Counted from the stretch's first letter, positions 17,687 to 63,353 are shown. The stretch: DNA of 64,000 bases from a virus (IMGVR_UViG_3300025437_000009); one strand, 5' to 3'. Notes: a model not told the origin generated them from the sequence alone. Made by a program: numbers and translations.

Positions 17687-17687
17687 A

Positions 17688-17951
17688 CTAATTTCCTTTT
17701 AATTTCCATATAATATGTTCTGTAGTTTCGTGATATCTGAACTCAACCACAGGTTCGCCTGGGCCTGTCCACATTGCTGTGCCTTCGTAGACAAACTGTA
17801 AAAATAACCAACGACCGGTTAAGGAACTACGTTTTGGTAACCATAAAAACTTTAATCGCCAATGGGCACGATTATAGAAAGCATCGTAAGTTTCATCCAT
17901 GCCTGTATATAAGCCTTGTGGAAACATTACTTGCCCCAGCCATTGCCCCAT
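17688..17951 (-). CDS. Hypothetical protein
   Basis: 87-aa ORF. Confidence 0.6.
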   Translation of the reverse strand: MGQWLGQVMFPQGLYTGMDETYDAFYNRAHWRLKFLWLPKRSSLTGRWLFLQFVYEGTAMWTGPGEPVVEFRYHETTEHIIWKLKGN

Positions 17952-18787
17952 AGGTCCACATGCAATCTGGGACTATAATTAAATCCACGTTCGCAACAGA
18001 TATTGGCAATGTTTAGTTTATTTGATTCGTATGGATCAACAACACCACCCTGCGGCATTAAGTATACGGTACCTTTAAATCCACCTGCACGGAAAGCATC
18101 CACAGCACGTGTAGCTTCATTAACATGATCTTCAGTTTCAACAACAAACTTAAGATATACATGTCCATATGTTTGATAGATATTAACAATTAGTGGCTTA
18201 ATAGCATCATCCCACGATTCGCCTGATGCTGATAGTTTAGCACTGACTGAGAATGTAACTTCACGACCTGAACCAGCATCGGCCCAGTCAATCAAGTAAT
18301 CGCGGAAGTCTTCATGTAATTCTTGAGTACCATTTGTTTCAAACGTAATGTTCTTTAAGTCTGCCATACGTGGATGACTTAACAAATCAGCATAAGCACG
18401 TTGCCAGCCTAAAAGTGGCTCACCGCCAGTAATAACTAAATGTACATCATTGCCATTGTTCTGTACCCAACTACCGTTGGGAGTTAGGGCTAACATCTTG
18501 TCTACAAGTTCATCTGTAGTGTATGTTGGAGACAAATGTTTGAACGCAGGATGCCATGACGCATATGAATCACAGCCTGTTTCTACTAAAGGAAGATCTA
18601 AAAAATCTTTATACAGTTCTACCTTTTTAGCAACTTCATCTGCACCTGTAGACTTTTCACCAGGCTTACACCCAAACCCTGAACAGGTAAAGTTACATCC
18701 ATAAGTTCTTAAGAATACACTAGGTACTCCCACAAAGCGACCTTCGCCTTGTAGACTGTAAAATATTTCACTGACTTTAATCTTCAT
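17927..18787 (-). CDS. queE: 7-carboxy-7-deazaguanine synthase (radical SAM)
   Basis: SEIFYSLQGEG, FLRTYGCNFTC...CDS, ITGGEP, ETNG. Confidence 0.92.
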   Translation of the reverse strand: MKIKVSEIFYSLQGEGRFVGVPSVFLRTYGCNFTCSGFGCKPGEKSTGADEVAKKVELYKDFLDLPLVETGCDSYASWHPAFKHLSPTYTTDELVDKMLALTPNGSWVQNNGNDVHLVITGGEPLLGWQRAYADLLSHPRMADLKNITFETNGTQELHEDFRDYLIDWADAGSGREVTFSVSAKLSASGESWDDAIKPLIVNIYQTYGHVYLKFVVETEDHVNEATRAVDAFRAGGFKGTVYLMPQGGVVDPYESNKLNIANICCERGFNYSPRLHVDLWGNGWGK

Positions 18788-19055
18788 ATATTTTTGACCA
18801 TTCAACTAATTTTTGACTCTTACGCAACTGCGCCGCACGCAATTCTGCATCTGTATATACCTGATGTGCTTTGAGCAATTCTATTAATAGTGTAACATCT
18901 CCTAGCTCTTGAGTCAAGTGTTCTCTTTGGGTACCACCGTCTTTGTACCGATTTTCCATACCAAAGCGGCGGCATTTACTAATAGCCTGTATAACCTCAG
19001 CACACTCCTCTTGGAGTATGTCTAAGATTTCATTAACCTTCGAAGAGGTCTTCAT
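18777..19055 (-). CDS. MazG-like NTP pyrophosphohydrolase
   Basis: LQEECAEVIQAISK...ELGDV acidic motif. Confidence 0.75.
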   Translation of the reverse strand: MKTSSKVNEILDILQEECAEVIQAISKCRRFGMENRYKDGGTQREHLTQELGDVTLLIELLKAHQVYTDAELRAAQLRKSQKLVEWSKIYED

Positions 19056-19539
19056 TCCACTCACGATGTCCTTCACGGAACGCCATATTGCTTTGTGTTT
19101 CACGTACTTCTACACGATAACACCAAAGTCGATCAGCTTCTGCTTGACCCCACATGTCGGGAATATAAACTCCGTTTACAAACTTGTATAGTTGATCGGC
19201 TAGACCTTCACAACCTAGTTTAGGTAGGACGGTTAGTTTAGCTAGATTCTTTTCTTGCAATAATTTGTATGTTTCAAGCTCAGGATCATCCTCGGCTACT
19301 AATAATGTATGATCAAATTGACTTTCAAGAATGCCTTTGAGTTCTTTAAGACCGCCGTAGTCGGCAGCCCAATTACGCACATCTAGGTCATCTGTACCAA
19401 AGTAAAATTTCATACTAAACGAATAGCCGTGAATTAAGTTACAGTGACTATCAGCTCGCCATTGGCGATATGCACAGGGAAATGCATCGTGATACTCTTT
19501 AGTACTTGTGTACTTGTACTGCCTAGATTGGTTTGCCAT
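19033..19539 (-). CDS. queD: 6-carboxy-5,6,7,8-tetrahydropterin synthase
   Basis: CNLIHGYSF, DYGGLK, FDHTLL, VRETQSN. Confidence 0.93.
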   Translation of the reverse strand: MANQSRQYKYTSTKEYHDAFPCAYRQWRADSHCNLIHGYSFSMKFYFGTDDLDVRNWAADYGGLKELKGILESQFDHTLLVAEDDPELETYKLLQEKNLAKLTVLPKLGCEGLADQLYKFVNGVYIPDMWGQAEADRLWCYRVEVRETQSNMAFREGHREWNEDLFEG

Positions 19540-19544
19540 TATAA

Positions 19545-19612
19545 ATCTCCTATGTTAATTATAGCATAGGCGGCAGAATTTGTAAAGCGGGATGACGCCG
19601 AAAGGCCGCTGA
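19545..19612 (-). ncRNA. Candidate cis-regulatory RNA (preQ1-I-like pseudoknot plus anti-SD hairpin) in the queD leader
   Basis: AGCGG/CCGCU stem; loop GGCG or CGGCG pairs with downstream UGCCGCC; CCUAUG/CAUAGG hairpin covers the SD AGGAG. Confidence 0.5.
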
Positions 19613-19626
19613 TTTTGGGAATATAA

Positions 19627-19806
19627 CTATTTATCTTGCGCAACTGGTGGTGAAACATTTGTGTCCACTTTAGTTGTATCAATTCCCATCTTTTTAGATA
19701 AGTATGGATCGATGTAAGGTTTATTAACAGTTTCATCTGCAACATTCCACCCCACGGCACTGACAAATCCTACTAATAACCAAGTTCCAATAAGTTCGAG
19801 TATCAA
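19627..19806 (-). CDS. Small membrane protein (59 aa, TTG start, not in the ORF track)
   Basis: MILELIGTWLLVGFVSAVGWNVADETVNKPYIDPYLSKKMG...; its stop overlaps TAAATA at 19628-19633. Confidence 0.5.
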   Translation of the reverse strand: MILELIGTWLLVGFVSAVGWNVADETVNKPYIDPYLSKKMGIDTTKVDTNVSPPVAQDK

Positions 19807-20364
19807 TTAACGCCACCACTCTTCCCAGGGGAACACAGCCCACTGTGGTTCTTCATTTTTGTTAATACTTAGACCCATGTAATCCACATCTTTGAATTCA
19901 CTAGCTTCATTATTGATTAGTACAGCAAAGCGTACATTATTACCAAATACATTTGCCCAACGTGAATTATCTGGCAGACAACTTGATTGCCAATCTTTTC
20001 GAATCCAGTTAAGGGTAGCACCCGTGTCGTTGATGTCATCTACTATGAGAATATTTTTAGCATGTAGGCTAAAATCAAACGCACCATCTCCGCCTAAGGC
20101 TTTATAACTTCCATCAATCCAGCCAAATGCATCTTCGGCCATCCACAAGTTAGATTCTGGCCCAGCAAGGTCGTCGCGGAAACTTACTTTAAGTGTTTCC
20201 ATTGGTACATCTAAGTATTGACTCAGCATGTTAGCAGGAACTAGACCGCCACGTGTAAGACCTACAACGTAATCGGGCTTCCAACCATCGGCATTCATTG
20301 CACGAATAATTTCGTGTATCCAACCTTTAACAGTTGATTCTTTATAAAATACTTTTCTAGACAT
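19807..20364 (-). CDS. Purine phosphoribosyltransferase (Gpt/Hpt-like, type I PRTase)
   Basis: VVGLTRGGLVPA, PRPP loop ILIVDDINDTGAT, VFPWE. Confidence 0.88.
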   Translation of the reverse strand: MSRKVFYKESTVKGWIHEIIRAMNADGWKPDYVVGLTRGGLVPANMLSQYLDVPMETLKVSFRDDLAGPESNLWMAEDAFGWIDGSYKALGGDGAFDFSLHAKNILIVDDINDTGATLNWIRKDWQSSCLPDNSRWANVFGNNVRFAVLINNEASEFKDVDYMGLSINKNEEPQWAVFPWEEWWR

Positions 20365-20680
20365 ATTGTTCTGCTTCTTTTAAATTATGTGATTGTACGT
20401 GATCTATAAACTTTAATAAAAACATGCTTGCTGTACTTGCATCGGCACCATCAAAACGGATTAGTGTTAGATTAGTCCCATCTTTAGTTACATAACTAGG
20501 CTTTGCTTTACCGTATTGTACTTGTTTTATAGTATGTTCGCGACCTCGCCAGTCATATTCTTTAAGCATTGTGGCTTTTCCGCCAATCATGTTAAACCAC
20601 TCGCCCATTTCATCGGAGAGTTCTTTTACATAAAACCGAATTTCATAAGCTACCCGACATCCTGGTGGTAATTGAATCAT
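20357..20680 (-). CDS. Hypothetical protein
   Basis: 107-aa ORF. Confidence 0.7.
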   Translation of the reverse strand: MIQLPPGCRVAYEIRFYVKELSDEMGEWFNMIGGKATMLKEYDWRGREHTIKQVQYGKAKPSYVTKDGTNLTLIRFDGADASTASMFLLKFIDHVQSHNLKEAEQYV

Positions 20681-21030
20681 TGTTCTTCTGTTAAAGTTAA
20701 TACCATTTTAAGTTGTTCTTGTGCTAGTTCATACTTGGCCAGTGCATCTGCTACAGTAGCATTTTTAGCCGCAAGTTCTTTGATCTTTGATTCTTCAGAC
20801 ATTTTCTTTTGGCACCAATCTAGGGCACTAATAGCTGCACCGCTTAGGCTAACTTCAGCACTGGTACCAAACTGAATCCAAGTGCTTCCATTAAACACTT
20901 CCATATTATTACCATTCATACGAATCATGCCAGTGGCTGGATTATTATGGTCAGGGTAAATGTACGGACTGTTATTAAATCCTGAGACATTTAAATATCC
21001 TGAAGTATTGGAATAGATGCTGTTAATCAT
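20677..21030 (-). CDS. Hypothetical protein
   Basis: 117-aa ORF with coiled-coil C-terminus. Confidence 0.7.
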   Translation of the reverse strand: MINSIYSNTSGYLNVSGFNNSPYIYPDHNNPATGMIRMNGNNMEVFNGSTWIQFGTSAEVSLSGAAISALDWCQKKMSEESKIKELAAKNATVADALAKYELAQEQLKMVLTLTEEQ

Positions 21031-21254
21031 TTTTCAATATCCCGCAAACGAATACTTAAATCGCGAACATCGGTAATAAGTTGATTTTCGATCTTACTTA
21101 CAAGTTTTTTTAGTCGAGCGAGTCTGACGTGAGCATACACGATCGCAACAACTACGGCAGTAAAGGTCAATCCCCACCCAGCAATAATACCAACAATCCA
21201 AGACCAAAGGCCATTTACTTCACCAACTAAAGTTTGTATAGTTTGTGCTATCAT
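21027..21254 (-). CDS. Small membrane protein
   Basis: TM helix plus coiled coil. Confidence 0.6.
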   Translation of the reverse strand: MIAQTIQTLVGEVNGLWSWIVGIIAGWGLTFTAVVVAIVYAHVRLARLKKLVSKIENQLITDVRDLSIRLRDIEK

Positions 21255-21580
21255 GATCGTAATTTGCTCATAGTAATAATTTTGCCTAGTTCTCTATCAA
21301 AGTCGCTACCATCTGGGATAATGTATAACTCGCCGTTGTTATAATCATTTGTTTGCATCTGTATAATAGTGCCACCATTGGCTGGGGTAATTTTAATAGT
21401 CATTGTTTGACTAGACTGCGGTGCTTGTGCAACCCCATATCCAGCTGGATTAATATTAATAGTTCCTGGTGTGCCACCTAAGGTGTATGACATTGGTTTT
21501 TTATCTTTCTCTATTATAATTCTACCTGCCGCTAACCAGTTTAGTATACTGATGCGGAAATTCTTGAACCATAGCGTCAT
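21251..21580 (-). CDS. Hypothetical protein, paralog of 21577-21849
   Basis: PANGGTIIQ...IIPDGSD...GKIITM.KLRS. Confidence 0.7.
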   Translation of the reverse strand: MTLWFKNFRISILNWLAAGRIIIEKDKKPMSYTLGGTPGTININPAGYGVAQAPQSSQTMTIKITPANGGTIIQMQTNDYNNGELYIIPDGSDFDRELGKIITMSKLRS

Positions 21581-21849
21581 GAACGCAATAATTCCATGCT
21601 AACAATCTGACCAATACGTTCGCTAATATCTTCGCCGTCGGGGATAACGTGTGTGATATGATTGTTGCGATCAGTCTTGCGATCGTAGCAACGAATCTGT
21701 ACTACAGTTCCACCCTGTGCTGGCATAACATTAAATGACAAGCCTTCTACATCAACAGATCTAGAACCTACTACTACATCTTGCACAGGTTGACAGCTAT
21801 TCCAATCGTCACGAACCCATTTAACTACAATTTTCTTTAGCCATTTCAT
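21577..21849 (-). CDS. Hypothetical protein, paralog of 21251-21580
   Basis: PAQGGTVVQ...VIPDGED...GQIVSMELLRS. Confidence 0.7.
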   Translation of the reverse strand: MKWLKKIVVKWVRDDWNSCQPVQDVVVGSRSVDVEGLSFNVMPAQGGTVVQIRCYDRKTDRNNHITHVIPDGEDISERIGQIVSMELLRS

Positions 21850-21947
21850 CTTGGAGCAAAGTCCTGTTGTAATTTGATATTGTCCATAAACTCTTTTTTG
21901 GTTCCTGGATCTGTGTTGAATGCACCTTTTAATACTGTGGTTTTCAT
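21846..21947 (-). pseudogene. Stranded duplicate of the folE 3' end (33 codons)
   Basis: MKTTVLKGAFNTDPGTKKEFMDNIKLQQDFAPR versus the folE end TQTTVLRGAFLKDPATKKEFFDNIALQSRNGK. Confidence 0.88.
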
Positions 21948-23200
21948 ATCAACTCCCAAAAATGTATTTCACACAGGCCGCGATGATAGCAAATCTCATC
22001 AAGCCCAAAGTCCAGGTATTAGTCCAGAACTTTACTCGTTCCGCAAATTCATACTGTTCAAGAATGTTCATTTTTCTTTGCCTCTCTTATTTAATATCCC
22101 AAATACCTTTTATGTGTTTAATAACTGTTTGACAGGATTTGACTAATTCTTTATTTGTTGGTGTGCATTGTTGTTCAAATTCAATAATGCCTTCCATTCG
22201 TTGAATAGCAAATTCATCCATAAAGTGTGTAAGGCTTGTATGTTTGTCGTAATGAATTGTTTTCATTTCTCTTGTGCCTTTCTTATAATTGGTCTAAGCA
22301 TAAACACCCATACAGCGTGACTAACCCACCCAACAATGATACCCCAAACGAATGCGTTCATTCTTCAACTCCGAAATGTTTAATACCACTGTTTTTACAG
22401 CAACCAATTTTAACTTTAATCATAAATAAATTATACAGCAATCCTATAGGAAAGTCAATGTTTTTAGATAACAAATATACTAAAGTTTATTACCAAATTA
22501 TTAATCGAGCATTAACACGACCATACAAAAAAGTAAAGAATGATGGATATCAAAAACATCATATTGTTCCAAAATGTATTGGAGGCACTGATTCTACTGA
22601 TAATCTTGTAATACTCAGTTATAAAGAACATAGAGTATGCCATTGTTTACTGATCAAAATGCAACTTACAAAATCAGCAGAAATCAAAATGCGACACGCC
22701 TACGGATTTTTTAATAAGAGTAGCAGATATAATGGGCCACGATATAAACGAGGGAAAGACAATATATTTTCTACTAAGGAAATCGTCGATCAAGTTCGTA
22801 AGCGTATGAAAGAAAACAATCCAATGAAGGATCCACTCTCTCAACAAAAAAGAGTCGATACCTGGAGAGCAAATAGAGCCGCACGAGATTACATTCCGCC
22901 GCGAGTCCTTAAGGACAAATTCATTACGCCAAGCGGCATTTTCAAAACCAAAAAAGAAATACAAAAAGTTGTAGGTATTCCAGAATGGACACTAAACACT
23001 ATCTACAACGATTTAGATGCTTACCCTGTTACAAACGGCAGGGCAAGCAAAAAAATCAATCACTTAAATATCGATCCAACAAAAACTTGGAGAGACAATG
23101 GGTTTGGATTACTTGCCGTTTCTTGATTGTAACGCAATATTGTCAAAGAATTCTTTTTTGGTAGCAGGATCTTTAAGGAATGCTCCGCGAAGAACAGTAG
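21948..23200. mobile_element. Insertion carrying an HNH endonuclease, four small ORFs and a replacement folE 3' end
   Basis: Bounded by the two copies of the folE C-terminal coding sequence. Small minus-strand ORFs at 21949-22071, 22087-22266, 22263-22361 and 22358-22423. The right boundary is approximate. Confidence 0.65.
22458..23126 (+). CDS. HNH homing endonuclease
   Basis: YQKHHIVPKCIGGTDSTDNLVILSYKEHRVCH; basic C-terminal DNA-binding region; TAAATA at 22423-22428; convergent overlap with folE. Confidence 0.88.
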   Translation: MFLDNKYTKVYYQIINRALTRPYKKVKNDGYQKHHIVPKCIGGTDSTDNLVILSYKEHRVCHCLLIKMQLTKSAEIKMRHAYGFFNKSSRYNGPRYKRGKDNIFSTKEIVDQVRKRMKENNPMKDPLSQQKRVDTWRANRAARDYIPPRVLKDKFITPSGIFKTKKEIQKVVGIPEWTLNTIYNDLDAYPVTNGRASKKINHLNIDPTKTWRDNGFGLLAVS

Positions 23201-23912
23201 TTTGAGTCAAAGAGCTGTGTGCCATTATGCCCCTATTGGTGCAACAACCATGTTCACATTCTATATATACACCAATGTTATCGGAATCAGTGGCCTTGCT
23301 TATTTCACGTGCTATATCGTTACATAGCTCTTCTTGTAAAGTACCACGGCGAGCACACCATTGAGCAATGCGAGTATACTTGCTAAGACCAATAAGTTTG
23401 TTTGCGGCAATGATCCCAATATAAGCCACTCCACTAACTGGCTGATGATGATGGCTACACATACTACGAAGTTCAGAGCGTACAACCAACATACCCTCGT
23501 ATCTATCTTCACTGTCGTTTGGAAACGCTGTGGCGTCTGGTCTTGGTGCATATCTACCTTCCATAATTTCATTAAAATACATCTTGGCCAAGCGACGTGC
23601 TGTGCCTTGGCTATTTGGATCAGTTTCTCGATCGATTAATAGGGTATCTAGCACTTGCTCAAACGCTTCTGTAGCTTCATTAATAAGAATTTCTTTATCG
23701 CTTTCGCTTACATAATCACTGATATTGTCTCCAGCCCAGAAACGTTTCTTGTCACGCTTCATATTGAAACGGATAGCATCAGCAAGATTTGCTTCTTCAT
23801 ATCCTTTGTCGCTCATATTCATTGCGGCATCTTCATATCCAGGATGATATGGTGCTTCTTGTACTAGTAAATCTGCTATTTTTTGTTCTTCTGGTGATGC
23901 GTAGTTAGGCAT
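23109..23912 (-). CDS. folE: GTP cyclohydrolase I
   Basis: SMCSHHHQP, IGLSKYTRI, LQEEL, HGCCTNRG; likely start MPNYASP at 23912. Confidence 0.95.
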   Translation of the reverse strand: MPNYASPEEQKIADLLVQEAPYHPGYEDAAMNMSDKGYEEANLADAIRFNMKRDKKRFWAGDNISDYVSESDKEILINEATEAFEQVLDTLLIDRETDPNSQGTARRLAKMYFNEIMEGRYAPRPDATAFPNDSEDRYEGMLVVRSELRSMCSHHHQPVSGVAYIGIIAANKLIGLSKYTRIAQWCARRGTLQEELCNDIAREISKATDSDNIGVYIECEHGCCTNRGIMAHSSLTQTTVLRGAFLKDPATKKEFFDNIALQSRNGK

Positions 23913-23952
23913 TCGTTTCTCCGAGTTAGTGTCGTGGATGACTTTATTGTAT

Positions 23953-23981
23953 ATTATAAGGTATTTAGATCTGTGTGTCAA
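23953..23981 (-). promoter_or_regulatory. Dual promoter: consensus sigma70 with TAAATA inside the spacer
   Basis: TTGACA(23981-23976)-17-TATAAT(23958-23953); TAAATA at 23967-23962. Confidence 0.8.
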
Positions 23982-24022
23982 ATATAATTAAATTTATTTG
24001 TCCATTAACGGTTAAATACAGA

Positions 24023-25102
24023 ATGAAACGAGCTGTACTCTGCGTACCCAATCCACAAGACTATATTGATCAATGCAACAATTATAGCATCATGATCATT
24101 AATCCTCAAGCACCTGTTGCTCGAAATCAATACCTATTGGCCAAAAGCGACTACAGTCTATTGATCACAGAACATGGTGTGGAAGAACGTGACGGGCAAG
24201 ACTACCCAAATGAACGTTTACTTTGGTATACTAGCGGAACTACAGGTGACAGTAAATTTTGCAGTTTTAGTCAGGAACAATTAGACATACTGGCACGTAA
24301 AATCTGCAACACTTATCAAATTACAGCCAATGATCGATATGTGAGTATTATGAGTCTATGGCACGCACACGGACAGGGCTTTTACTGGGCTACCCGACTA
24401 GCTGGTTGTGAAACTCATTTTTTATCAGTTGCAAATATTCGGCACATGCCAGAATTTGATCCCACATTTGTTACTGCTATACCCGATGTACTAAAGACTA
24501 TTGGACAGTTTGATTTTAAAAGCCTACGTTTCCTACGTGGTGCTAGTTCAGCTCTTCCTAATCAATTGTATCTTGATCTAAAACACAAATTTGGGGTTCC
24601 TGTAATAGAAGCATTTGGCATGACCGAAGCACTGAGTCACTGTTTTACTAACCCTTTAGATGGAGAACAGCGCATAGGTACTGTGGGACTACCAGATGGC
24701 ATAGAAGCTGATATAGTCGAAGGACGTTTATATATTAGTGGCGCTACTGTTTTTACTGATGGTTGGTACGATACCGGAGATCTAGCTGATAGAGATGAAC
24801 AAGGCTACTATCGTATACTAGGACGGCATCGTGATCAAATCAATGTTCGCGGGATTAAAGTAAATCCTATTAGTATTGAAAATCAATTAGTACACTCAAT
24901 TCCAACTATAGGTGACTGTGCAGTATTTGGCAGTGACAGTTTAAAGTGTATCTATACAGGAGATACTGATCCCGAGGTAGTTAGAAAATTTTTGATCAGT
25001 TTAGGACAACAATGCAAACCCATGCTACTACAACACGTGGCTCAAATACCAGTTAGTCCTTCGGGGAAGATTTCAAGGACTTGGCTCAATGGCCAATATT
25101 AA
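24023..25102 (+). CDS. AMP-dependent acyl-CoA synthetase/ligase (compact)
   Basis: YTSGTTGDSK, EAFGMTE, GWYDTGD, GRHRDQINVRG, SGKI; likely start 24023. Confidence 0.88.
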   Translation: MKRAVLCVPNPQDYIDQCNNYSIMIINPQAPVARNQYLLAKSDYSLLITEHGVEERDGQDYPNERLLWYTSGTTGDSKFCSFSQEQLDILARKICNTYQITANDRYVSIMSLWHAHGQGFYWATRLAGCETHFLSVANIRHMPEFDPTFVTAIPDVLKTIGQFDFKSLRFLRGASSALPNQLYLDLKHKFGVPVIEAFGMTEALSHCFTNPLDGEQRIGTVGLPDGIEADIVEGRLYISGATVFTDGWYDTGDLADRDEQGYYRILGRHRDQINVRGIKVNPISIENQLVHSIPTIGDCAVFGSDSLKCIYTGDTDPEVVRKFLISLGQQCKPMLLQHVAQIPVSPSGKISRTWLNGQY

Positions 25103-25667
25103 GTAGTCTTAGATCGGGATACGGGTAGGCTTTTGGCGATTCTGCTACCTGTGGTAGTCGTTCTAAACCTAGTTGACAAGTTTCTAAAGTAGGACAATAG
25201 TGGTAACCTTGACTGAATGTCTTTTGATCTTGCCAAGGAGTGATACGTAAATCTCTACCATCACTACGCATACGACTCAATGCTTCATACGCAGTCGAAT
25301 CATCTAATAGTATAGCACCAGCTTTGCCTAGCTCTAGAGGTTTACCGTGACCAAAGCTCAGACATTGCATAGCACCCGGCCGATACATACCACGTTCTAG
25401 TCTACGGGCACTATCCCAGATGTTGGTTTTATAAAATTCATATTCACCCGTCCATTCGTCATCTGTTAGGCGATAATGAATGTTTAATTGATTCAACAGT
25501 TGGGGAATACTAAGATATGTCTGTGCGGGGAATTGGCAGTATCTGACTCGACGGTATCTAAAACACAGTTCAAGAGCATGAGTGCAACCATCAGTTGCCA
25601 CTGCATAGGGAGCACCGGTATATTCAGCTAGTGCAGATTCAAAGTCGAATAGTGTTTGGAAACTCAT
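25086..25667 (-). CDS. Short DegT/DnrJ/EryC1-like PLP aminotransferase
   Basis: FESALAEYTGAPYAVATDGCTHAL, DSAR, SFGHGKPL. Confidence 0.7.
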   Translation of the reverse strand: MSFQTLFDFESALAEYTGAPYAVATDGCTHALELCFRYRRVRYCQFPAQTYLSIPQLLNQLNIHYRLTDDEWTGEYEFYKTNIWDSARRLERGMYRPGAMQCLSFGHGKPLELGKAGAILLDDSTAYEALSRMRSDGRDLRITPWQDQKTFSQGYHYCPTLETCQLGLERLPQVAESPKAYPYPDLRLLNIGH

Positions 25668-26023
25668 TCTGATAGGTGATCTTTTTTGATTTCACGTACT
25701 GAGCACCCTAGTTTTTCTGCTATTAGATTTTTAAGTGCCACACGACGATTATTATGATCACGGATACTAATAGCACGACGTCCAATTTCTTCTAGACTTA
25801 ATTCAGCTTCTCGACCAGTTTTAAGTTCTGCTTCTAAATCCCAAATCTCATGGTGTATTTGTTTGAGTTGCTCGTATTCATCTACGATAAGACTAATGTC
25901 AATACGTAAGGCTTGATTCATGTACCATAACAATTCTTCTTCATTGGCTTTAGTACGTTTAAATTTTACTTCTGCAATAGCTAGTCTATCAACTAGTTCG
26001 ATAATAGGAAATACGGGGGTCAT
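25664..26023 (-). CDS. Hypothetical helical protein
   Basis: 119-aa ORF. Confidence 0.7.
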   Translation of the reverse strand: MTPVFPIIELVDRLAIAEVKFKRTKANEEELLWYMNQALRIDISLIVDEYEQLKQIHHEIWDLEAELKTGREAELSLEEIGRRAISIRDHNNRRVALKNLIAEKLGCSVREIKKDHLSE

Positions 26024-26026
26024 TGG

Positions 26027-26236
26027 TTATTGATCGTTTTCTGGCTGTCCGCCTGTACAAGATCCGCCTTCAAACCAAAGCCCTTGGGCTTCTTTTTGAT
26101 ATTGTGCTAGATCATATTCGTCTTTTTTACGCTTATACTCATCTTCAGTGAGAGCATGCCACCCACAGCACTTACCTATTGGGCTACGGCCGCAACCACA
26201 GCCACCAAAATTATCGTTACTTGTTCTTACTTGCAT
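26027..26236 (-). CDS. CDGSH-like iron-sulfur domain protein
   Basis: CGCGRSPIGKCCGWH resembles the CDGSH 3Cys-1His motif. Confidence 0.6.
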   Translation of the reverse strand: MQVRTSNDNFGGCGCGRSPIGKCCGWHALTEDEYKRKKDEYDLAQYQKEAQGLWFEGGSCTGGQPENDQ

Positions 26237-26429
26237 TTTTTAATTTCCAAATGGTTTCTTTAGCTTCTTGCAAATCTGTAAAAAGACTATCGTTTAGATT
26301 TTTAGCAACAGCTAGTTCTTCTCGAAGTTTTTGTTCACTATCTGTAATTTTTGGAGTTTCATTTTTGTCACTAACTCTACCAGCAACAAACCCGCAAAAA
26401 AGTGCAACAACAAATAATAATACGCTCAT
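26217..26429 (-). CDS. Small membrane-anchored coiled-coil protein
   Basis: MSVLLFVVALFCGFVAG after SD GGAGA. Confidence 0.6.
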   Translation of the reverse strand: MSVLLFVVALFCGFVAGRVSDKNETPKITDSEQKLREELAVAKNLNDSLFTDLQEAKETIWKLKNASKNK

Positions 26430-26629
26430 TGAGGTTTCTCCTTTAATCCTCGCCATTTTTCAATTTTTATTACTGTTTCCCAGCCCTTTTTCTTGGACCA
26501 AGTTTCTCTGTGCGGCCAAGGCCAATGTGCAGTCATTACATCATACTCGCCTTCGTTGACTGGATCGACGTCGCCAGGAAACCAATCGGTTAATAAGGAT
26601 TCAAGATCTTCGGTGGTAAAGGTTGTCAC
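26426..26629 (-). CDS. Hypothetical protein
   Basis: 67-aa Trp-rich ORF. Confidence 0.6.
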   Translation of the reverse strand: MTTFTTEDLESLLTDWFPGDVDPVNEGEYDVMTAHWPWPHRETWSKKKGWETVIKIEKWRGLKEKPQ

Positions 26630-26630
26630 A

Positions 26631-27836
26631 TTAATCCTCTAACTGAATAAATTCTTGTCTAAGTTCTTCCAGTGCGGCATTCATACCAGCAATAAACTCT
26701 TGTTTTTCGGTCTGGGTAATACAATATTTCTCACGATTGGCCTGACCTTCTTTGGTGTCTGGATCGTAATCAATAAATGAGAACTCGGTGCCATCACAAT
26801 CAGGGCAATGATCGTTATAATCGTCATCGGTCCTGCGTTCCTCACTCATACCTGTCCACCCACACTTTTTGTTGTCGCAGATGAGATCTGGCGGCTCAGG
26901 TGGTTGGTTGGCCCAGTTGCTAGTGTCCCAGTTGTATCCAGACCAGCGATCCACACTGGTGATAGGGTTGAACTTGCCAAATTCCCATTCACCAAAGTTG
27001 TTGCCATCCCAGTATAGGCTACCATGGGTAGTACCAAAATGACTCCATACAGCATTGTAATATCCTGGATATACCGGCTTGTGTTTGGCAAACTTAAAGG
27101 TGACAGACCTTTCCCAACTGGCCGGACTGGTGCCGTATTCTGGATGTCCCCAATCCTTCTCTCCGGGTTCATAGCGTTCAAAGTTGCCTTCGTCGTCAAT
27201 CATCCGTACCATATTAAACTCACTGCTCTTGCCGTCGGTTGAGCCGCCCCAATTGTCGATGTCTTCGCCATCATAGCTGATACCATGTACAATCTCTTCG
27301 TCGTCAAAGTCGGAAATATGTAAGGTTAATTTTTCAATATCAAATGGTGCTGTAAGTTCTAGTTCAGCTTCAAAGAATGTACCTTTTTCGTTTGAACTTC
27401 CTACAAACACAACTTCGCCTTTTTTGCGACTTCCAATCCAAACTTCATCATCGGTGTCGAGCTGTGCGCTATCATCACAGCCATCAAACTCTTCCAGACT
27501 TTTCTCAAGTACTGTATCACCGTTCTCATCTTCAATCTGTAAGGTGCCAGCATCACGACTAACACCGTGAACATGACCCATGCTGTCGCATTCGTACCAC
27601 GATCCTGGGTAGAACGGCAACTGGTCAGGATCAAGACCCATGTTTTCAGCGGCATCACTATCCCAAGCCAAATCGCTGAGATCTACTTGATGTTCCATGC
27701 AGTAATCCCATACCTTGGGATCCACTGTGCCCATGACCTTTTCGCCACCGTAGCCCCACATAGAGATTTTATAAGTACGTGGTGTAAATTTAAGAACTTC
27801 AATTAGTTGTTCTGCTGTGATATCTTTAGTTGCCAT
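26631..27836 (-). CDS. Acidic hypothetical protein with C-terminal zinc finger
   Basis: 401 aa; CDNKKC...CPDC. Confidence 0.75.
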   Translation of the reverse strand: MATKDITAEQLIEVLKFTPRTYKISMWGYGGEKVMGTVDPKVWDYCMEHQVDLSDLAWDSDAAENMGLDPDQLPFYPGSWYECDSMGHVHGVSRDAGTLQIEDENGDTVLEKSLEEFDGCDDSAQLDTDDEVWIGSRKKGEVVFVGSSNEKGTFFEAELELTAPFDIEKLTLHISDFDDEEIVHGISYDGEDIDNWGGSTDGKSSEFNMVRMIDDEGNFERYEPGEKDWGHPEYGTSPASWERSVTFKFAKHKPVYPGYYNAVWSHFGTTHGSLYWDGNNFGEWEFGKFNPITSVDRWSGYNWDTSNWANQPPEPPDLICDNKKCGWTGMSEERRTDDDYNDHCPDCDGTEFSFIDYDPDTKEGQANREKYCITQTEKQEFIAGMNAALEELRQEFIQLED

Positions 27837-27841
27837 TTTTT

Positions 27842-28090
27842 TTACCTATTTAGAGTTGACCAAGTGAGCCATTCCTTAAAAGCATTATACACTTCTTTGA
27901 CTTCTTTGTCATCCTGTTCGAGTTTCACGCCACGTACATAAAAGCCATCTTCGGCTACACGTAGCATTTCGGTTTCTCCTGAACATAGAGTAATATCGTT
28001 TTTTGGAGAAGTGAATACAACAGGCTTGGTATTAACGGCATTAGCCTTAACCATATTTTGATACCAAACCGGGTCAGTATTTACGCTCAT
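27842..28090 (-). CDS. Hypothetical protein
   Basis: 82-aa ORF. Confidence 0.65.
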   Translation of the reverse strand: MSVNTDPVWYQNMVKANAVNTKPVVFTSPKNDITLCSGETEMLRVAEDGFYVRGVKLEQDDKEVKEVYNAFKEWLTWSTLNR

Positions 28091-28093
28091 ATG

Positions 28094-29191
28094 TTATTTT
28101 CCGAGATTAATTAATAACTTGTCGGCACTAAAGAACTCTTGAGTCAACATGTCTGTTTGTTTTTGTAAAATTGGTAGTAGCACATCGTATTCTTCCATAT
28201 ACTGTTTAATTTTATTGCAAAGGAAGGGTTTGTACACTTCATAAGAACTATAGCTGTCAGTCCATTCTGAAGGATATTTAAATGCATCAAGAGCCATTTC
28301 TTGATAGCTCAAACGATCAGGAACCAATGGAATAGCATCGACTAAACAGCCTTCATACCAACTAATACCTAGGGTTTCTTGAAGATTAGCTGAAAATACT
28401 ATTTTTGCTTGACCCAATAAGGTATGATATTGATCTTTGGTTAGCGTTTGGTCTTGACAAACAACAAATTCATATTGCGGTAAGTCACGTGCTAGGTCTC
28501 TAAAAATTTCTACTTGTTTTTCTGGAGCAATACGGTGTGGGAAAAGGATGAGATCTCGTTTGGCAATTCCCTTGTATGGAGCAAGCGTGTCCTGCATATA
28601 CTCCATAGGCCAGCCTGAACGCACAATCTTTTTGTTCATGAATAGTGATGCTTTATCTTCACTAGCCCAAGGATTTTCGCTTTTAACCCCATTCTCTAAC
28701 AGGTTATCAACAAACATATTGATGTGAAAGTCAGTAGCAAAATAGTTGTGATCAAACGAGTGAAAGAAACTCTTTTCAGCATGTCTAACCCAAGGTGCAT
28801 CGCCAATCAATCTACCTAAGAAATCTTGAGGATCATATGAGCCAGCATGCCATAGTCCGTGTGTAGTCACTAGAATGTTCAGCAACTCACTCATGTATTT
28901 TAAGTTGATGATACCAGGATGCCAAGCATCAGTAAAGATAAAATGATCGCCAGACTGAACTGCTCCGGCACAAAATAGACGACCCAACTGTTCCACTTGG
29001 TTAGCTTTGTATATATTAGTACCACCAAAGTTAAGGAAAGCACCAGGGGTAGTGGCACTGGGAATGTCTGTAGGTCCTGCAATAACTTGAACATCATGTC
29101 CTGCCTTTCGTAGAAGATCGGGTACATGGCTCTTCCACTGGCCAGTGTACCTAGTTTCAACACTTTCTAAATCAATTAAAAATACTGTCAT
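28094..29191 (-). CDS. GT-B fold glycosyltransferase within the deazaguanine gene region
   Basis: FPHRIAPEK, FSANLQETLGISWYEG (Ex7E of the GT4 type). Confidence 0.75.
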   Translation of the reverse strand: MTVFLIDLESVETRYTGQWKSHVPDLLRKAGHDVQVIAGPTDIPSATTPGAFLNFGGTNIYKANQVEQLGRLFCAGAVQSGDHFIFTDAWHPGIINLKYMSELLNILVTTHGLWHAGSYDPQDFLGRLIGDAPWVRHAEKSFFHSFDHNYFATDFHINMFVDNLLENGVKSENPWASEDKASLFMNKKIVRSGWPMEYMQDTLAPYKGIAKRDLILFPHRIAPEKQVEIFRDLARDLPQYEFVVCQDQTLTKDQYHTLLGQAKIVFSANLQETLGISWYEGCLVDAIPLVPDRLSYQEMALDAFKYPSEWTDSYSSYEVYKPFLCNKIKQYMEEYDVLLPILQKQTDMLTQEFFSADKLLINLGK

Positions 29192-29640
29192 TTTCCAATA
29201 GTAATAGTTGCTGGATTTAGTGTACTATCGTTTTCAACATCTGTCAAATTAAATGTAGTACTAGAGCTAGTGTATGGTCCAGATGGGATAGTGCCCCACG
29301 GACTACCTGGATTAGCATATGGGCTATAGGGACTGCCCGGACCTGGCATGTATGGATTTACTGTGGGAGGTATGTAAGAATTTCTCTGTCTAACTTCATT
29401 CTCCACATTTGCCAGTCTGGAACGAATGCTCTTTAAATCTTCCTGCATTTGACGTAGTGGACCGTGACTGGTTTCTACTGCCATACGTCCATCGTCTTGT
29501 GGGCGTGTTAGCTCAATAATAGTTAGCAATCCACGTAAGGCACTTTGTACACGTTCGTCCTTGCTGGTCATTGCTTCATCTAAATACGCAAACATGCGTT
29601 CTATTTCATAATCTGCTTGGGTTTTCTCTCGCATACTCAT
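29188..29640 (-). CDS. Hypothetical protein with Pro-rich C-terminus
   Basis: 150-aa ORF. Confidence 0.65.
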   Translation of the reverse strand: MSMREKTQADYEIERMFAYLDEAMTSKDERVQSALRGLLTIIELTRPQDDGRMAVETSHGPLRQMQEDLKSIRSRLANVENEVRQRNSYIPPTVNPYMPGPGSPYSPYANPGSPWGTIPSGPYTSSSTTFNLTDVENDSTLNPATITIGK

Positions 29641-29773
29641 GTGTTACTCTTTGTAAATTTGGAATAAACTTTGAAATGGAATACTGTAAACAGAAAATCT
29701 AATAGCACTGGTTAGTGTGCTAAAAGATTTTCTAATTTTGCGACCACTTGAAATGTAGTAGCTGACTGTATAA

Positions 29774-30037
29774 TTAGTCACGTGGTTTCCAACTAGTATC
29801 GCGAGGTTTAAAATCCTTGCGATCACGTTTAGGAGTACGCCATTGATCCCAAGGTTCACGACCACGAACCATTTTCATGTATTCGCTATAAGGGCCACGA
29901 TCCTTATAAAGATCACGTTCGTCATATGAATAACCATAATCTCGACAGAATTGATGATATACTTCTAAATCATCAAAGATCTGCTTGACTTCGGGTTTCA
30001 TACGAAGATACTTGGTGAGCCATTCTGGTTTGGCCAT
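29774..30037 (-). CDS. Hypothetical protein
   Basis: 87-aa ORF, SD AAGGAG. Confidence 0.7.
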   Translation of the reverse strand: MAKPEWLTKYLRMKPEVKQIFDDLEVYHQFCRDYGYSYDERDLYKDRGPYSEYMKMVRGREPWDQWRTPKRDRKDFKPRDTSWKPRD

Positions 30038-30049
30038 TTTACTACTCCT

Positions 30050-30493
30050 TTAAATTACGATTGATTGAGCAGGACGGGTGAGGTTATAATCAATTGAGCA
30101 TCCGTTTTCACCGTCCTCGGATACTTCAATTGTTACAGCACGATCAGGATAACGTGCAGCAATTTGTACATACAAGTCATCTGCCATCATCTCGCAGGAT
30201 TTCCAGTCGAGCGCCAGCACACCGTCTTGATACAGATTAACGAGCCAGCGTTTGAACTGGATGAATTCAATATCTCGGTCGTTGTGGAACACATCGATAG
30301 AAACACGGAAATGAAACATATGACGATGAGGGCTAGCCAAAAACGATACATCATATTCTCCTGCGGTATTCAAGTTGGGGTCTGTGGCTGCCGCTGGATA
30401 GCAGTGGATGCCTTCTTTTTCAAACGTGACCCAAATCTGTCGTTGGGCCGCGGCCATTATTCTATCTACTACTGCACGTTGTTCTTGATTCAT
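30050..30493 (-). CDS. QueD paralog (T-fold), DpdL-like putative CDG decarboxylase
   Basis: LASPHRHMF matches the LxxxHRHxF motif; RDIEFIQFK, SCEMMA, EVSEDGENG. Confidence 0.7.
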   Translation of the reverse strand: MNQEQRAVVDRIMAAAQRQIWVTFEKEGIHCYPAAATDPNLNTAGEYDVSFLASPHRHMFHFRVSIDVFHNDRDIEFIQFKRWLVNLYQDGVLALDWKSCEMMADDLYVQIAARYPDRAVTIEVSEDGENGCSIDYNLTRPAQSIVI

Positions 30494-30494
30494 G

Positions 30495-31073
30495 TTATTC
30501 AAAGTCAAAGAGTTTAAGAGAATCTCTCATAGAAGAGATGATGAGTATTTGCTTCATTGCTGTATTAGTGATACGATATCTGTAGGAGTTAGGATGATTA
30601 AACCCATCAAATACCGCCCACCTGTTACTACTAGTAATAGTTTTTGTACGCACACCTGCAACAAGTTGCCGGCGTAAATCTTCATAAGCATCTTTTAGTT
30701 TGCTTTGAATTTCTGGTAAGGCCATATCTACAATTTTTACATCGGCAACTTCTCTAAATACCGGATCCCATGTTACTTGATTTTGATTTTGTACCTTAGG
30801 ATAAAAACCGGTTTCTTCCCAAACAGGGGTAGCAATAATATCGGAAATGGTCATCGACCCAACGGTATGATTGGCATTACTGCCTTTCTTACGAGTCTTG
30901 TTATCAATGTTATATTCGGGCATGTCGACACGACCTTTGGAATCGATTGTGTGACCCTTACGCATCATTTCTGCGTCTACCCATTGTCCTACATCACAGT
31001 CATTACGTACTTCCGGTAATGGTGCAAGTTTTTCAATGTTATCTTTAATAACACTTACTCGGGCTTGTTTCAT
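30495..31073 (-). CDS. Hypothetical protein, possible PD-(D/E)xK nuclease
   Basis: GQWVD...VDMPEYNIDNKT pattern; weak. Confidence 0.5.
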   Translation of the reverse strand: MKQARVSVIKDNIEKLAPLPEVRNDCDVGQWVDAEMMRKGHTIDSKGRVDMPEYNIDNKTRKKGSNANHTVGSMTISDIIATPVWEETGFYPKVQNQNQVTWDPVFREVADVKIVDMALPEIQSKLKDAYEDLRRQLVAGVRTKTITSSNRWAVFDGFNHPNSYRYRITNTAMKQILIISSMRDSLKLFDFE

Positions 31074-31582
31074 TTGATTACTTCGTCTTTAGTGTACTTC
31101 GACCAATCCGTAAATACCTTACGGTCCCTTAATTCATGTAAACTGTGACACCAAATACCTGGGTTAGTAGCCGCATAGTCTTTGTCATCGAGCTTAATTG
31201 TAGCATTATATCCCAGCAGTTGTATATAGGGCAATTTCACCGAAATCATTGGGATAAAGTTATTGAATTCTGTCAATCGACCACTGGTTATCTGTTCTAC
31301 GTTAGCAACATCAAAGTCTAAGGTACATAACCAACCTGCTTCTAAGCAGTCAGTGATCATCATTTCCCAATCCTGCATTTCATCTGAGTCCATATCCGAC
31401 TGAGGAAAACTTTGATTAGCACCAAAATAAATGTGTGTGCAATTATTGTTTTTAGCTTCTTGCTGAATAATTTGACTGTCTTGAATACCAACCACAAACA
31501 GAGTTTGATGCCCAAATGCTGGTGAGTGTTCAACTTCTGTGCCAGTAAAAAATTCTATTTCATCGTGCCCAGGTCTATCCAT
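31070..31582 (-). CDS. Uncharacterised protein immediately downstream of the TGT/DpdA gene
   Basis: 170-aa ORF (GTEVEH, HIYFGANQSF, NPGIWCH). Confidence 0.75.
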   Translation of the reverse strand: MDRPGHDEIEFFTGTEVEHSPAFGHQTLFVVGIQDSQIIQQEAKNNNCTHIYFGANQSFPQSDMDSDEMQDWEMMITDCLEAGWLCTLDFDVANVEQITSGRLTEFNNFIPMISVKLPYIQLLGYNATIKLDDKDYAATNPGIWCHSLHELRDRKVFTDWSKYTKDEVIK

Positions 31583-31772
31583 TTGCTTTTTGCTCTCTAA
31601 ATTCTAATTCAGATTTAAGTTTAACAATATTATCTTTAATATGCAACCTTTGTTGTTTCAATTTATGTAGATGCTCGTCATTAAATTTGCCTGTAGATTC
31701 CATGCCATCAATCTTTTTATCGATCTCTGCGTGTTCTTTTTCTAAATGTGCAATACGTCCTAAGAGTGTCAT
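31575..31772 (-). CDS. DUF465/YdcH-like coiled-coil protein
   Basis: LEKEHAEIDKKI...LKQQRLHIKD. Confidence 0.65.
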   Translation of the reverse strand: MTLLGRIAHLEKEHAEIDKKIDGMESTGKFNDEHLHKLKQQRLHIKDNIVKLKSELEFREQKANG

Positions 31773-33400
31773 TCTTCCCCCAAATGATCAAGTTTAGTTT
31801 CATCAAATCCAGAATCATCAATATGATGTTCTTCTTCCTCGTCTACTTCGCCTTCTACTACAAATAACTGGTCAAACATAGCGGAACCATTAATGGCTTT
31901 TGTACCTTTATTTCCACGGGTACCAATGATTTCAGTCCAGTACTTACTGTAGCCATCAACAATCTCCATACTTTTTTCTTTAGTGGGTGCTGCAAAGATA
32001 CTTTCTACAATATCTTCAAAGTATTCGCCACCGGGACCTGAGCTACGCATCATAGCAGGATGTTCCCCAAGATCAAATCTACGATTAGCTTCTTGTACTG
32101 CGGTTAAGTGTTGATAAACATTATGTCCCATCAATAGTGCATAACTGAAACTATCCCAACTGGTCTTACCCCATTTGCCATTCTTATTCATGTCAGGCAG
32201 TACATCATACATGTCAGGGTCTTTAAAGTTTTCTTCGGTGAGTGTAACACCTGCTTTAGGAACACCTGGTTTATAGATACAGATGTCTTTCATAGTTAAT
32301 AAATCACTAACAGGTGATTCTTGCCAAACATCATAGATTTTGTCTTGTATTACCCCATCTGACCATTTACGTGTGTCTGTAGCATACTTTTTATCATCTG
32401 CTGATGGTGCCATGCGATACGACCATTTGCCGTTGTTAGGGAATGTATTTTCGTGATAAACCTGTCCGTTAGCAGTTGCTAAGAAAGGACTAGCACAGTC
32501 AAAACTAATTGTAAAATTAGGATTGACATGACGGCGCACAGCACGTTGAATAACAGTAAGTAGTACTGCCCACTCTAATTTACTTGTACCTAGGAAGTGC
32601 ATCCAATCGTGAACGCCTTCTTGTAGTAAGTTATCATAACGTAGGGACACTAAACGACGCAGGACCAAGTGTACATCACACATGTTCTGACCACCCATGG
32701 CCCAACCATCAAAGTGCGTATCTGGATATTTCACAGGATCGCAGTAGTCCTTCATAATGTCATACCAGCGATCAGCGTCGGGATGATTACTGCCCTGTAG
32801 AACATTTAAGAATCTTGTACCGCCATTCTTAACACCCTTACGATGTTTCATAAAGTATTCGTTATTGTATTTGGTAGCTTCAACTGCTTGCGTTAGTGTG
32901 CGAATACCACACTTAGCACTGGCTTCTTTATCGTGGATTACCCAACTTGGGATATCCAAAATCATTCCATAGTCAGCAACACCATCTAACCATTTGAGTA
33001 CAGCATCGCGCTTGGCCTGTGCTTTGGGACAACCTGAGTTGGCTTTCCAATCACCTTCCCATAGGCCTTTACCAATTTGGAACCCACCAGAGTCACCTAA
33101 GATCAGTGTGTTAGGATCTCGATTACGAACCATGTCTTCGCACCAATCTTGTTTATTCAGGTCGAGGTTTGCGTGGCCACCGGAGTAAAGCGACCACTTA
33201 TAAGGAAACAAACCTTTATTAGCATCAAGCCAATTAAGTTGTTCCATATCTGTTAAGCCCTGCGGGAAACGTGCAGGATCTACATAAGGACCATTTATAG
33301 GGTCACGTTGCTTACCTATAAATGTAGCATAGAAACCACTAATAGCCGGAAGAAACACAGCATAGTCGTTTTGTTTAGCGGTTAAGTTGTCTTGCGTCAT
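31769..33400 (-). CDS. Large TGT-fold guanine transglycosylase (DpdA-like)
   Basis: DSGGFQ, LDIP, LQG, MGG, HFLG, FDCASP; no CxCxxC zinc site. Confidence 0.82.
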   Translation of the reverse strand: MTQDNLTAKQNDYAVFLPAISGFYATFIGKQRDPINGPYVDPARFPQGLTDMEQLNWLDANKGLFPYKWSLYSGGHANLDLNKQDWCEDMVRNRDPNTLILGDSGGFQIGKGLWEGDWKANSGCPKAQAKRDAVLKWLDGVADYGMILDIPSWVIHDKEASAKCGIRTLTQAVEATKYNNEYFMKHRKGVKNGGTRFLNVLQGSNHPDADRWYDIMKDYCDPVKYPDTHFDGWAMGGQNMCDVHLVLRRLVSLRYDNLLQEGVHDWMHFLGTSKLEWAVLLTVIQRAVRRHVNPNFTISFDCASPFLATANGQVYHENTFPNNGKWSYRMAPSADDKKYATDTRKWSDGVIQDKIYDVWQESPVSDLLTMKDICIYKPGVPKAGVTLTEENFKDPDMYDVLPDMNKNGKWGKTSWDSFSYALLMGHNVYQHLTAVQEANRRFDLGEHPAMMRSSGPGGEYFEDIVESIFAAPTKEKSMEIVDGYSKYWTEIIGTRGNKGTKAINGSAMFDQLFVVEGEVDEEEEHHIDDSGFDETKLDHLGEE

Positions 33401-33410
33401 ATTAATAATG

Positions 33411-34777: not shown

Positions 34778-34800
34778 TTATATTCTCCATAAGTGTAGTA

Positions 34801-34829
34801 AGTTTAAAGTAATATTTAGAAAAAGTCAA
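34801..34829 (-). promoter_or_regulatory. Dual promoter: sigma70 plus TAAATA in the spacer
   Basis: TTGACT-17-TAAACT; TAAATA at 34818-34813. Confidence 0.6.
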
Positions 34830-35761: not shown

Positions 35762-35762
35762 T

Positions 35763-63197: not shown

Positions 63198-63353
63198 TTT
63201 TAATTCCTTTATGTATATGTATTTTGGCTGGCGTTCTACGTGTATCACAGTAGTAAAAGGGTACTTACCCCAGGCGTCTGACGTCAACAAGAGTGTCGGC
63301 GTTGCTACTATTATTTATCCGTGATTAAAATCTATTGTGGATATTGATCCGAC

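Follow-up and report, generated by a model that had tools for sequence, protein, structure and literature searches.

Phages that carry deazaguanines in their DNA are thereby protected against restriction enzymes and CRISPR nucleases, and such modifications are in turn the target of newer defence systems. In Cellulophaga phage phiST, which has the protein DpdL and is without QueC, all of the G is replaced by 2′-deoxy-7-deazaguanine (dDG) (PMC10516641). DpdL is defined as a paralogue of QueD with LxxxHRHxF at the place of CxxxHGH, and it occurs in phages that have DpdA, FolE, QueD and QueE but not QueC; the phiST protein is assigned a QueD-like fold by HHpred (99.9%), and has been proposed, without proof, to be the 7-carboxy-7-deazaguanine (CDG) decarboxylase behind the full replacement by dDG (PMC10516641). 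The DNA of the Pseudomonas jumbo phage PA5oct is resistant at restriction sites that contain G, and a nuclease that is directed specifically at phages carrying modified G attacks it; of its genes the authors pointed out just QueE and a PTPS homologue, and they gave no identity for the base (PMC12191111). Here we analyse a 64,000-nt stretch of viral DNA (IMGVR_UViG_3300025437_000009, the whole of which we call the window) that contains a set of genes of the DpdL type between positions 17927 and 33421 on the minus strand. These encode FolE, QueD, QueE and DpdL homologues, a DpdA-like protein with the fold of a tRNA-guanine transglycosylase (TGT) and a glycosyltransferase (GT) of the GT4 type. 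The DpdL-type system is of a kind already known; what is new is an unrecognised branch of DpdA, and an invariant GT4 partner. Our reading is that the module performs guanine modification of the DpdL type in the DNA of a PA5oct-like jumbo phage, with the GT most likely acting in the same pathway, and we would give this a probability of about 0.7.

The window resembles phiST in having FolE, QueD and QueE with no QueC, in a protein with the DpdL signature (33% identity, E 4e-9), in a TGT-derived enzyme that is recognisable only by profile or structure methods, and in the proximity of the cluster to DNA polymerase genes, which it adjoins. It differs in that the phiST cluster includes MazG and a small ATPase, and no GT4 homologue was found in phiST. 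Moreover the product in phiST is known to be 100% dDG, and plain dDG is not known from any other phage with DpdL. Acidovorax phage ACP17 has a contiguous run (ASD50402 to ASD50406) of genes for an o170-like protein (o170 being encoded directly downstream of the DpdA-like gene in the window), DpdA, GT4, DpdL and QueE. Its DpdL is 57% identical to that of the window (E 1e-38), its GT4 (ASD50404) 34% and its o170 27%. By contrast, its DpdA2-type enzyme is related to that of the window only at the level of profiles, and ACP17, at 156 kb, is T4-like and below jumbo size. PA5oct (Wroclawvirus; EST35_0316 to 0322) has the DpdA-like protein (EST35_0316; 39% identity, E 8e-79), GT4 (EST35_0317; 45%), DpdL (EST35_0318; 53%), QueE, o170 and family B DNA polymerase (PolB), and QueC and QueF were not found in it. 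The PA5oct genes were deposited as hypothetical proteins and its DpdL motif has HFH in place of HRH, while the sulfotransferase-like open reading frame (ORF), phosphoribosyltransferase (PRTase), ANL enzyme and DegT-like protein of the window are additional to the PA5oct set. The DpdL identities are those of a tblastn search of 50,697 phage records, in which Phosso gave 65%.

PA5oct and its relatives provide the closest GenBank matches to the DpdA-like protein, followed by Sinorhizobium phage Phosso and then a Vibrio phage; the gene is labelled hypothetical in every one of these. IMG/VR contains 511 matching stretches, among them records of 349-357 kb that are estimated to be 97-100% complete. 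Synteny was counted in 81 related loci that carry an orthologue of the DpdA-like gene. The conserved order runs PolB, methyltransferase, an ORF of 244 amino acids (aa), a sulfotransferase-like ORF in some of the loci, DpdA-like, o170, DpdL, GT, DegT-like, FolE, QueD and QueE. Because of this conserved order and the closest matches in the PA5oct group, we assign the window to a PA5oct-like jumbo phage; on these grounds it is a fragment of an uncultured member with a genome of ~350 kb. Megablast of positions 17000-34000 against the GenBank phage collection gave no match, PA5oct included. A preliminary description of the window had reported queE, queD and folE, a second QueD-like protein with LxxxHRHxF and a TGT-fold protein of about 540 aa lacking the zinc site, dispersed over some 15 kb with no QueC in view. 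Each of these elements is found, over a span of ~15.5 kb in an order that is conserved in the relatives, and the evidence for them is given below and in Table 1.

The DpdA-like protein consists of a TIM-barrel core, to which helices are added at the C-terminus, and of an acidic tail; it contains the sequence GDSGGFQ. It has no match in Pfam (E up to 10), PHROGs or NCBIfam, nor by phmmer among the sequences of the PDB. Its AlphaFold2 model has a predicted local distance difference test score (pLDDT) of 89.4 and a predicted TM score of 0.90, and at the top of its Foldseek ranking there are TGTs only, the first with E 6e-6 and probability 1.0. VIA-align gives Z scores of 18-19 over ~305 aligned residues against bacterial, archaeal and eukaryotic TGT structures, including 18.8 for 2ash (308 residues), and all of the top 50 entries are TGTs. 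A profile of the family reaches only E ~1.3 to TGT among PDB sequences, yet it does so in the correct register. In the hidden Markov model alignment, D110, D156, Q209 and G243/244 are paired with D102, D156, Q203 and G229/230 of the Z. mobilis TGT, in the motifs DSGG, LD, LQG and GG. Seven residues (P25, S80, D110, S111, G113, H275 and D308) are invariant in an alignment of 75 diverse members, and D308 falls on the nucleophile motif, S-x-D-S, in the DpdA proteins of ACP17 and 9g. The zinc motif CxCxxC is absent from the window protein and from all 81 orthologues, there is no conserved cysteine in the 75-sequence alignment, and the protein is without both the zinc subdomain and the PUA domain. 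From the fold, the retention of catalytic and base-binding residues and the analogy with DpdA, we infer that this enzyme would insert a 7-deazaguanine into DNA. Indirect support comes from PA5oct, which encodes an orthologue and whose DNA withstands cleavage at restriction sites containing G (PMC12191111).

Comparison of profiles by hhalign relates the family to the DpdA of ACP17 (95.8% probability, E 7e-9, 182 columns) and to the DpdA3 of phiST (gp042, CGPG_00065; 87%, E 4e-6), a type also represented in Campylobacter phages, the latter match being over only 83 columns and with a protein of 259 aa compared with ~540. The ACP17 protein groups with those of Vibrio phages VH7D, nt-1 and KVP40, and is thus of the DpdA2 type; a tblastn search with it returned 71 records (Vibrio, Stenotrophomonas, Xanthomonas, pf16 and BUCT-ZZ01), none of which was of the PA5oct type. 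There was no significant match to the DpdA1 of phage 9g (1.5% probability), and none at E up to 10 to DUF6610 (PF20314), the marker of the DpdA4 of archaeal viruses, or any other Pfam family. Since the relation to the ACP17 and phiST proteins is at profile level only, and there is none to 9g DpdA1, the window transglycosylase is by sequence comparison a separate and longer branch of DpdA, remotely related to the DpdA2 type of ACP17 and probably to the DpdA3 of phiST. The Queuovirinae phage 9g is similar to the window in its order of polymerase, clamp, dpdA, folE, queD and queE and, if our reading holds, in the post-replicative exchange of bases; it differs in that it encodes Gat-QueC, and the DpdA1 systems of the Queuovirinae make 2′-deoxyarchaeosine (dG+) or 2′-deoxy-preQ0 (dPreQ0). 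The new branch is large, with more than 7,500 close clusters at 90% identity in metagenomes, and 929 at 50% identity, none of which has a precomputed Pfam domain. Pfam, PHROGs and NCBIfam all miss the transglycosylase, so that surveys based on those models will overlook this branch.

In the DpdL homologue of the window LASPHRHMF is an exact fit to the DpdL signature, and is aligned with LGSPHRHLF in ACP17 and LSLNHRHLF in phiST. The form L...H[R/F]H.F is kept in all 74 DpdL orthologues of the related loci, and PHROG 17812 matches the window protein with E 2e-34. The phiST protein that is matched is gp040 (CGPG_00067), encoded between the MazG and ATPase genes as described (PMC10516641). The gene is co-encoded with those for the DpdA-like protein, FolE, QueD and QueE, and no QueC was found. 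The Pfam family PTPS does not match the window DpdL even at E 10, and a DpdL profile found no relative in the PDB. The preliminary description presented DpdL as a QueD paralogue proposed to decarboxylate CDG, and this is an accurate account of the published proposal (PMC10516641).

The GT has the two Rossmann domains of the GT-B fold and the EX7E motif as E272...E280. Invariant in 39 sequences are E280 and the basic pair for phosphate binding, R220 and K225. Its AlphaFold model (pLDDT 79) is matched best by sucrose-phosphate synthase (6kih, Z 22.6), BshA (6n1x, 20.9) and PimA (2gej, 20.8) over ~300 residues, with lower scores for a pterin glucosyltransferase (18.5) and the T4 alpha-glucosyltransferase (1y6f, 17.8); PF00534 is present in 29% of the members of a related Atlas cluster. 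The alpha- and beta-glucosyltransferases of T4 are likewise phage GT-B enzymes, and decorate a DNA base (hydroxymethylcytosine) that is already modified. The window GT is nearer to the GT4 enzymes (Z 20-22.6) than to the T4 alpha-glucosyltransferase, and no hydroxymethyl acceptor is predicted in the window system.

The position of the GT gene is highly constrained. It lies between dpdA and dpdL in PA5oct and ACP17, and a GT profile finds a single copy, a few kb from the DpdA-like gene, in each of five genomes, i.e. four large relatives of the window phage (three of them 97-100% complete and ~350 kb in length) and PA5oct. In all 33 informative metagenomic loci, these being the ones whose sequence runs on for 6 kb or more on the downstream side of the DpdA-like gene, both DpdL and the GT are at most 4.1 kb from that gene, with a median of 2.1 kb. 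Neighbouring GT and DpdL genes occur in ACP17, Phosso and the Xanthomonas phages X1 and BUDD as well, and in Burkholderia phage BCSR5 the two lie within 4 kb; X1 and BUDD have a DpdA2-type enzyme. That the GT-DpdL pair travels with two very different types of DpdA argues for a shared function. By this measure of gene association the GT belongs to the core set together with DpdL and the DpdA-like gene, and most likely works in the same pathway as DpdL. We considered whether the ORFs of 170 and 192 aa between the DpdA-like gene and DpdL might be a split form of a 353-aa gene of PA5oct, and rejected this; the PA5oct gene matches the GT at 28094-29191. Many relatives have a GT variant of 400-434 aa at the same position (e.g. 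L018:12713-14017 and L014:13246-14460). A search with a single sequence aligns only the N-terminal ~140 residues of these, while the profile still brings the catalytic motifs into register, so the variants may have a conserved acceptor domain and a diverging donor domain.

All three genes required to make CDG are present on the minus strand (Table 1). The N-terminus of the QueE protein is matched by NCBIfam QueE models (E ~1e-11), and the cysteines for the cluster are C37-x3-C41 and, after a 36-residue insert, C78 in GCDSY. This long insert is common to the relatives including PA5oct; the insert of phiST at the same place has 7 residues. The QueD motif is CNLIHGY, i.e. CxxxHGY rather than the textbook CxxxHGH, and CxxxHGY is also found in the QueD proteins of ACP17 and phiST and in all 20 orthologues examined. 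FolE is aligned with positions 3-178 of the 179 in PF01227, and has an additional N-terminal extension of ~100 aa. The last ~26 codons of folE are repeated at 21867-21944, ~1.2 kb past the intact gene, in a copy that is 73% identical to FolE residues 260-285. An HNH-like ORF (22236-23126) lies in between on the opposite strand, and the arrangement suggests that a homing-endonuclease cassette has been inserted at the 3′ end of folE. Between 17000 and 36000 Rfam gave no RNA family at E up to 1, and hence no known preQ1 riboswitch in the leader of queD (19540-19633).

QueC, QueF and TGT Pfam models gave no match to the window ORFs of at least 142 aa. A search of the four large relatives and PA5oct for QueC found nothing above the cut-off; weak QueC-like matches in the relatives are to NAD synthase (NadE), not QueC. 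QueF was not found in the three relatives of 97-100% completeness or in PA5oct, where a weak match of 14 bits falls under the cut-off. The failure to find QueC or QueF in the window, the relatives and PA5oct fits a phage-encoded pathway that ends at CDG, as in phiST, with no preQ0, preQ1 or archaeosine. The expectation in the preliminary description that the genome carries dDG or a further derivative, rather than preQ0 or archaeosine, is supported by this gene content and by the invariant GT4.

We propose the following sequence of events. FolE, QueD and QueE would convert GTP into CDG, as judged from their homology to characterised enzymes, and the DpdL homologue would then process CDG, the published proposal being decarboxylation to 7-deazaguanine. 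After replication the zinc-less TGT-fold enzyme, which is encoded beside replisome genes, would exchange guanine in the DNA for the deazapurine, and the GT would be required for forming the product, or else would decorate it. The DNA may thus finally carry dDG or, since GT4 is the invariant neighbour of DpdL in the clade, a further derivative that may bear a sugar. It is tempting to go further, and to suggest that DpdL and GT4 together yield a sugar-bearing or otherwise elaborated 7-deazaguanine base in PA5oct-, ACP17-, X1- and Phosso-like phages, but we regard that as doubtful. A literature search found no description of a glycosylated deazaguanine. The suggestion, if true, would add a hitherto undescribed class of guanine hypermodification, and the missing GT (and perhaps o170) would account for the failure to obtain a product in E. 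coli with just DpdL and DpdA.

A number of observations weigh against our reading. CDG decarboxylase activity has not been demonstrated for any DpdL, and when the dpdL and dpdA of phiST or ACP17 were tried in E. coli, dDG was not obtained (PMC10516641). Comparison of the DpdL and QueD alignments by hhalign is weak (20% probability, E 0.001, 39 C-terminal columns), and although in the Atlas PTPS is the Pfam family of the nearest cluster that has one (score 0.93), that is a lead only; the fold of the window DpdL is therefore assigned through its homology with the phiST protein. The absence of QueC from this phage is judged from the window and from relatives that share ~75% protein identity, and a host QueC could turn phage-made CDG into preQ0. 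Lastly, 7-deazaguanine has no obvious group that could accept a sugar, so the GT may act elsewhere.

This last point leads to the alternative that we take most seriously, although at somewhat below even odds, namely that the GT4 lies outside the deazaguanine pathway, acting on another DNA base, a protein or the host envelope, and is linked to DpdL through shared expression of an early or replication module. The lack of a hydroxyl acceptor on 7-deazaguanine would then present no difficulty; the structural neighbours of the GT are generic GT4 enzymes, other glycosyltransferases are encoded in the window at 8200-9192, and phiST makes dDG without such a GT. It is harder to reconcile with the adjacency of GT and DpdL in at least five phage lineages having two very different types of DpdA, and in every one of the 33 metagenomic loci. 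The GT also enters into a second alternative, in which DpdL is not a decarboxylase, and the module inserts CDG or a derivative of its carboxyl group (such as an amide or ester) after elaboration of the carboxylate by GT4 or the ANL enzyme. The unproven activity of DpdL and the failure of heterologous dDG formation (PMC10516641) would be explained, dCDG (the CDG deoxynucleoside) exists in the DNA of another virus, the ANL enzyme and the half-size DegT-like aminotransferase flank FolE, and the GT4 is invariant. Yet phiST, with DpdL, carries dDG and not dCDG, and the ANL gene is found in few relatives and is not part of the core, with no homologue of ANL or DegT in the PA5oct or ACP17 clusters. 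On balance we think insertion of CDG unlikely.

The remaining alternatives concern the transglycosylase. A purine-type PRTase is encoded two genes from QueD, and PA5oct has a weak PRT-like ORF in the interval from DpdL to QueE. The biosynthesis of toyocamycin and tubercidin includes PRTase steps, and by analogy the deazapurine nucleotide might be made by the PRTase before replication and then polymerised, with the TGT-fold enzyme in another role. However, the PRTase occurs in only one of the four large relatives, being missing in G001, G002 and G004 (two of which are 97-98% complete), whereas all of the related loci have the TGT-fold gene, and its product retains the residues for catalysis of base exchange. 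In addition, DpdA is encoded by every deazaguanine phage studied so far (PMC10516641). We therefore consider a pre-replicative route very unlikely. An action of the TGT-fold enzyme and the CDG genes on tRNA or on the queuosine metabolism of the host, and not on phage DNA, might be suggested by the fold, which is that of the tRNA-guanine transglycosylases, and by the queuosine genes that some phages carry as auxiliary metabolic genes (a PHROG category). But the protein has neither zinc subdomain nor PUA domain and does not match the Pfam TGT model even at E 10, its gene adjoins that of DNA polymerase like dpdA in phage 9g, the DNA of PA5oct is modified at G, and a tRNA TGT would, without QueC, have neither preQ0 nor preQ1 to act on. 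A role in tRNA modification is thus exceedingly improbable.

If guanine modification of the DpdL type by this module is accepted, the DpdL-type pathway is widespread, being the norm among the uncultured jumbo phages of a very large clade. The DpdL reaction having resisted reconstitution, the GT is a concrete and testable candidate for the missing component. PA5oct can be cultivated and has been used in phage-therapy studies. With the same genes and modified G, it allows the prediction to be tested directly.

Table 1. Features of the module and its surroundings in the window.
Feature	Position	Strand	Size and basis
QueE-like radical S-adenosylmethionine (SAM) CDG synthase	17927-18805	minus	292 aa; PHROG 2076 'QueE-like radical SAM' E 7e-55
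QueD (6-carboxytetrahydropterin synthase) homologue	19033-19539	minus	168 aa; PF01242 E 2e-13; PHROG 2389 E 2e-35
Purine-type PRTase	19807-20364	minus	185 aa; PF00156 E 7e-16; weak XPRT/HGPRT NCBIfam matches
FolE (GTP cyclohydrolase I)	23109-23981	minus	290 aa; PF01227 E 9e-39; NCBIfam FolE E 2e-38
Short ANL adenylate-forming enzyme	23975-25102	plus	375 aa; family searches
Half-size DegT-like aminotransferase	25086-25667	convergent with ANL	193 aa; keeps SFGHGK lysine motif
GT-B / GT4-type glycosyltransferase	28094-29191	minus	365 aa; EX7E motif; model and profile
DpdL homologue	30050-30508	minus	152-aa ORF, likely start M6; motif LASPHRHMF
o170, conserved protein directly downstream of DpdA-like gene	31070-31582	minus	170 aa; in 78/81 related loci
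DpdA-like transglycosylase, TGT fold	31769-33421	minus	550 aa from TTG; 543 aa from ATG at 33400
Conserved context, DpdA-like to polymerase	33411-38423	minus	synteny in 71-80/81 loci
Sulfotransferase-like ORF	33411-34043	minus	PF03567 E 3e-5
Conserved ORF	between sulfotransferase-like ORF and methyltransferase	minus	244 aa
Class I SAM methyltransferase	34826-35818	minus	Methyltransf_12 E 5e-8
Family B DNA polymerase	35763-38423	minus	DNA_pol_B E 3e-36

Nearly all of the genes around 17927-33421 are on the minus strand. Upstream of the DpdA-like gene the sulfotransferase-like ORF overlaps its start by 11 bases and is kept in 30 of the 81 loci, and the methyltransferase, which adjoins the polymerase, is conserved in 71. 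On the downstream side, o170 has no match in Pfam or PHROGs, and its homologues among GenBank phages are confined to the PA5oct group and ACP17, where it abuts dpdA; it is a candidate accessory factor. An equivalence of o170 with a Phosso protein labelled 'glycosylase' was rejected.

Of the genes nearer to the CDG cluster, the PRTase is placed outside the core because it is present in some relatives only; the salvage of guanine freed by base exchange would be a reasonable role. The DegT-like gene adjoins folE in 35 of the related loci, and the ANL gene is present in only 5. In Xanthomonas phage X1 a protein of the phosphoadenosine phosphosulfate (PAPS) reductase family, which belongs to the PP-loop ATPase superfamily, is encoded directly after folE in the deazaguanine cluster (L090:5332-5865), and might stand in for QueC-type chemistry there.

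A tripartite ATP-independent periplasmic (TRAP)-type solute-binding protein of the DctP family is encoded at 62246-63290 of the window as two overlapping ORFs, beside a TctC-like ORF. Farther upstream of this split gene there are genes for ClpB, DnaJ, a ferritin-like protein and dCMP deaminase, which are auxiliary genes typical of jumbo phages.

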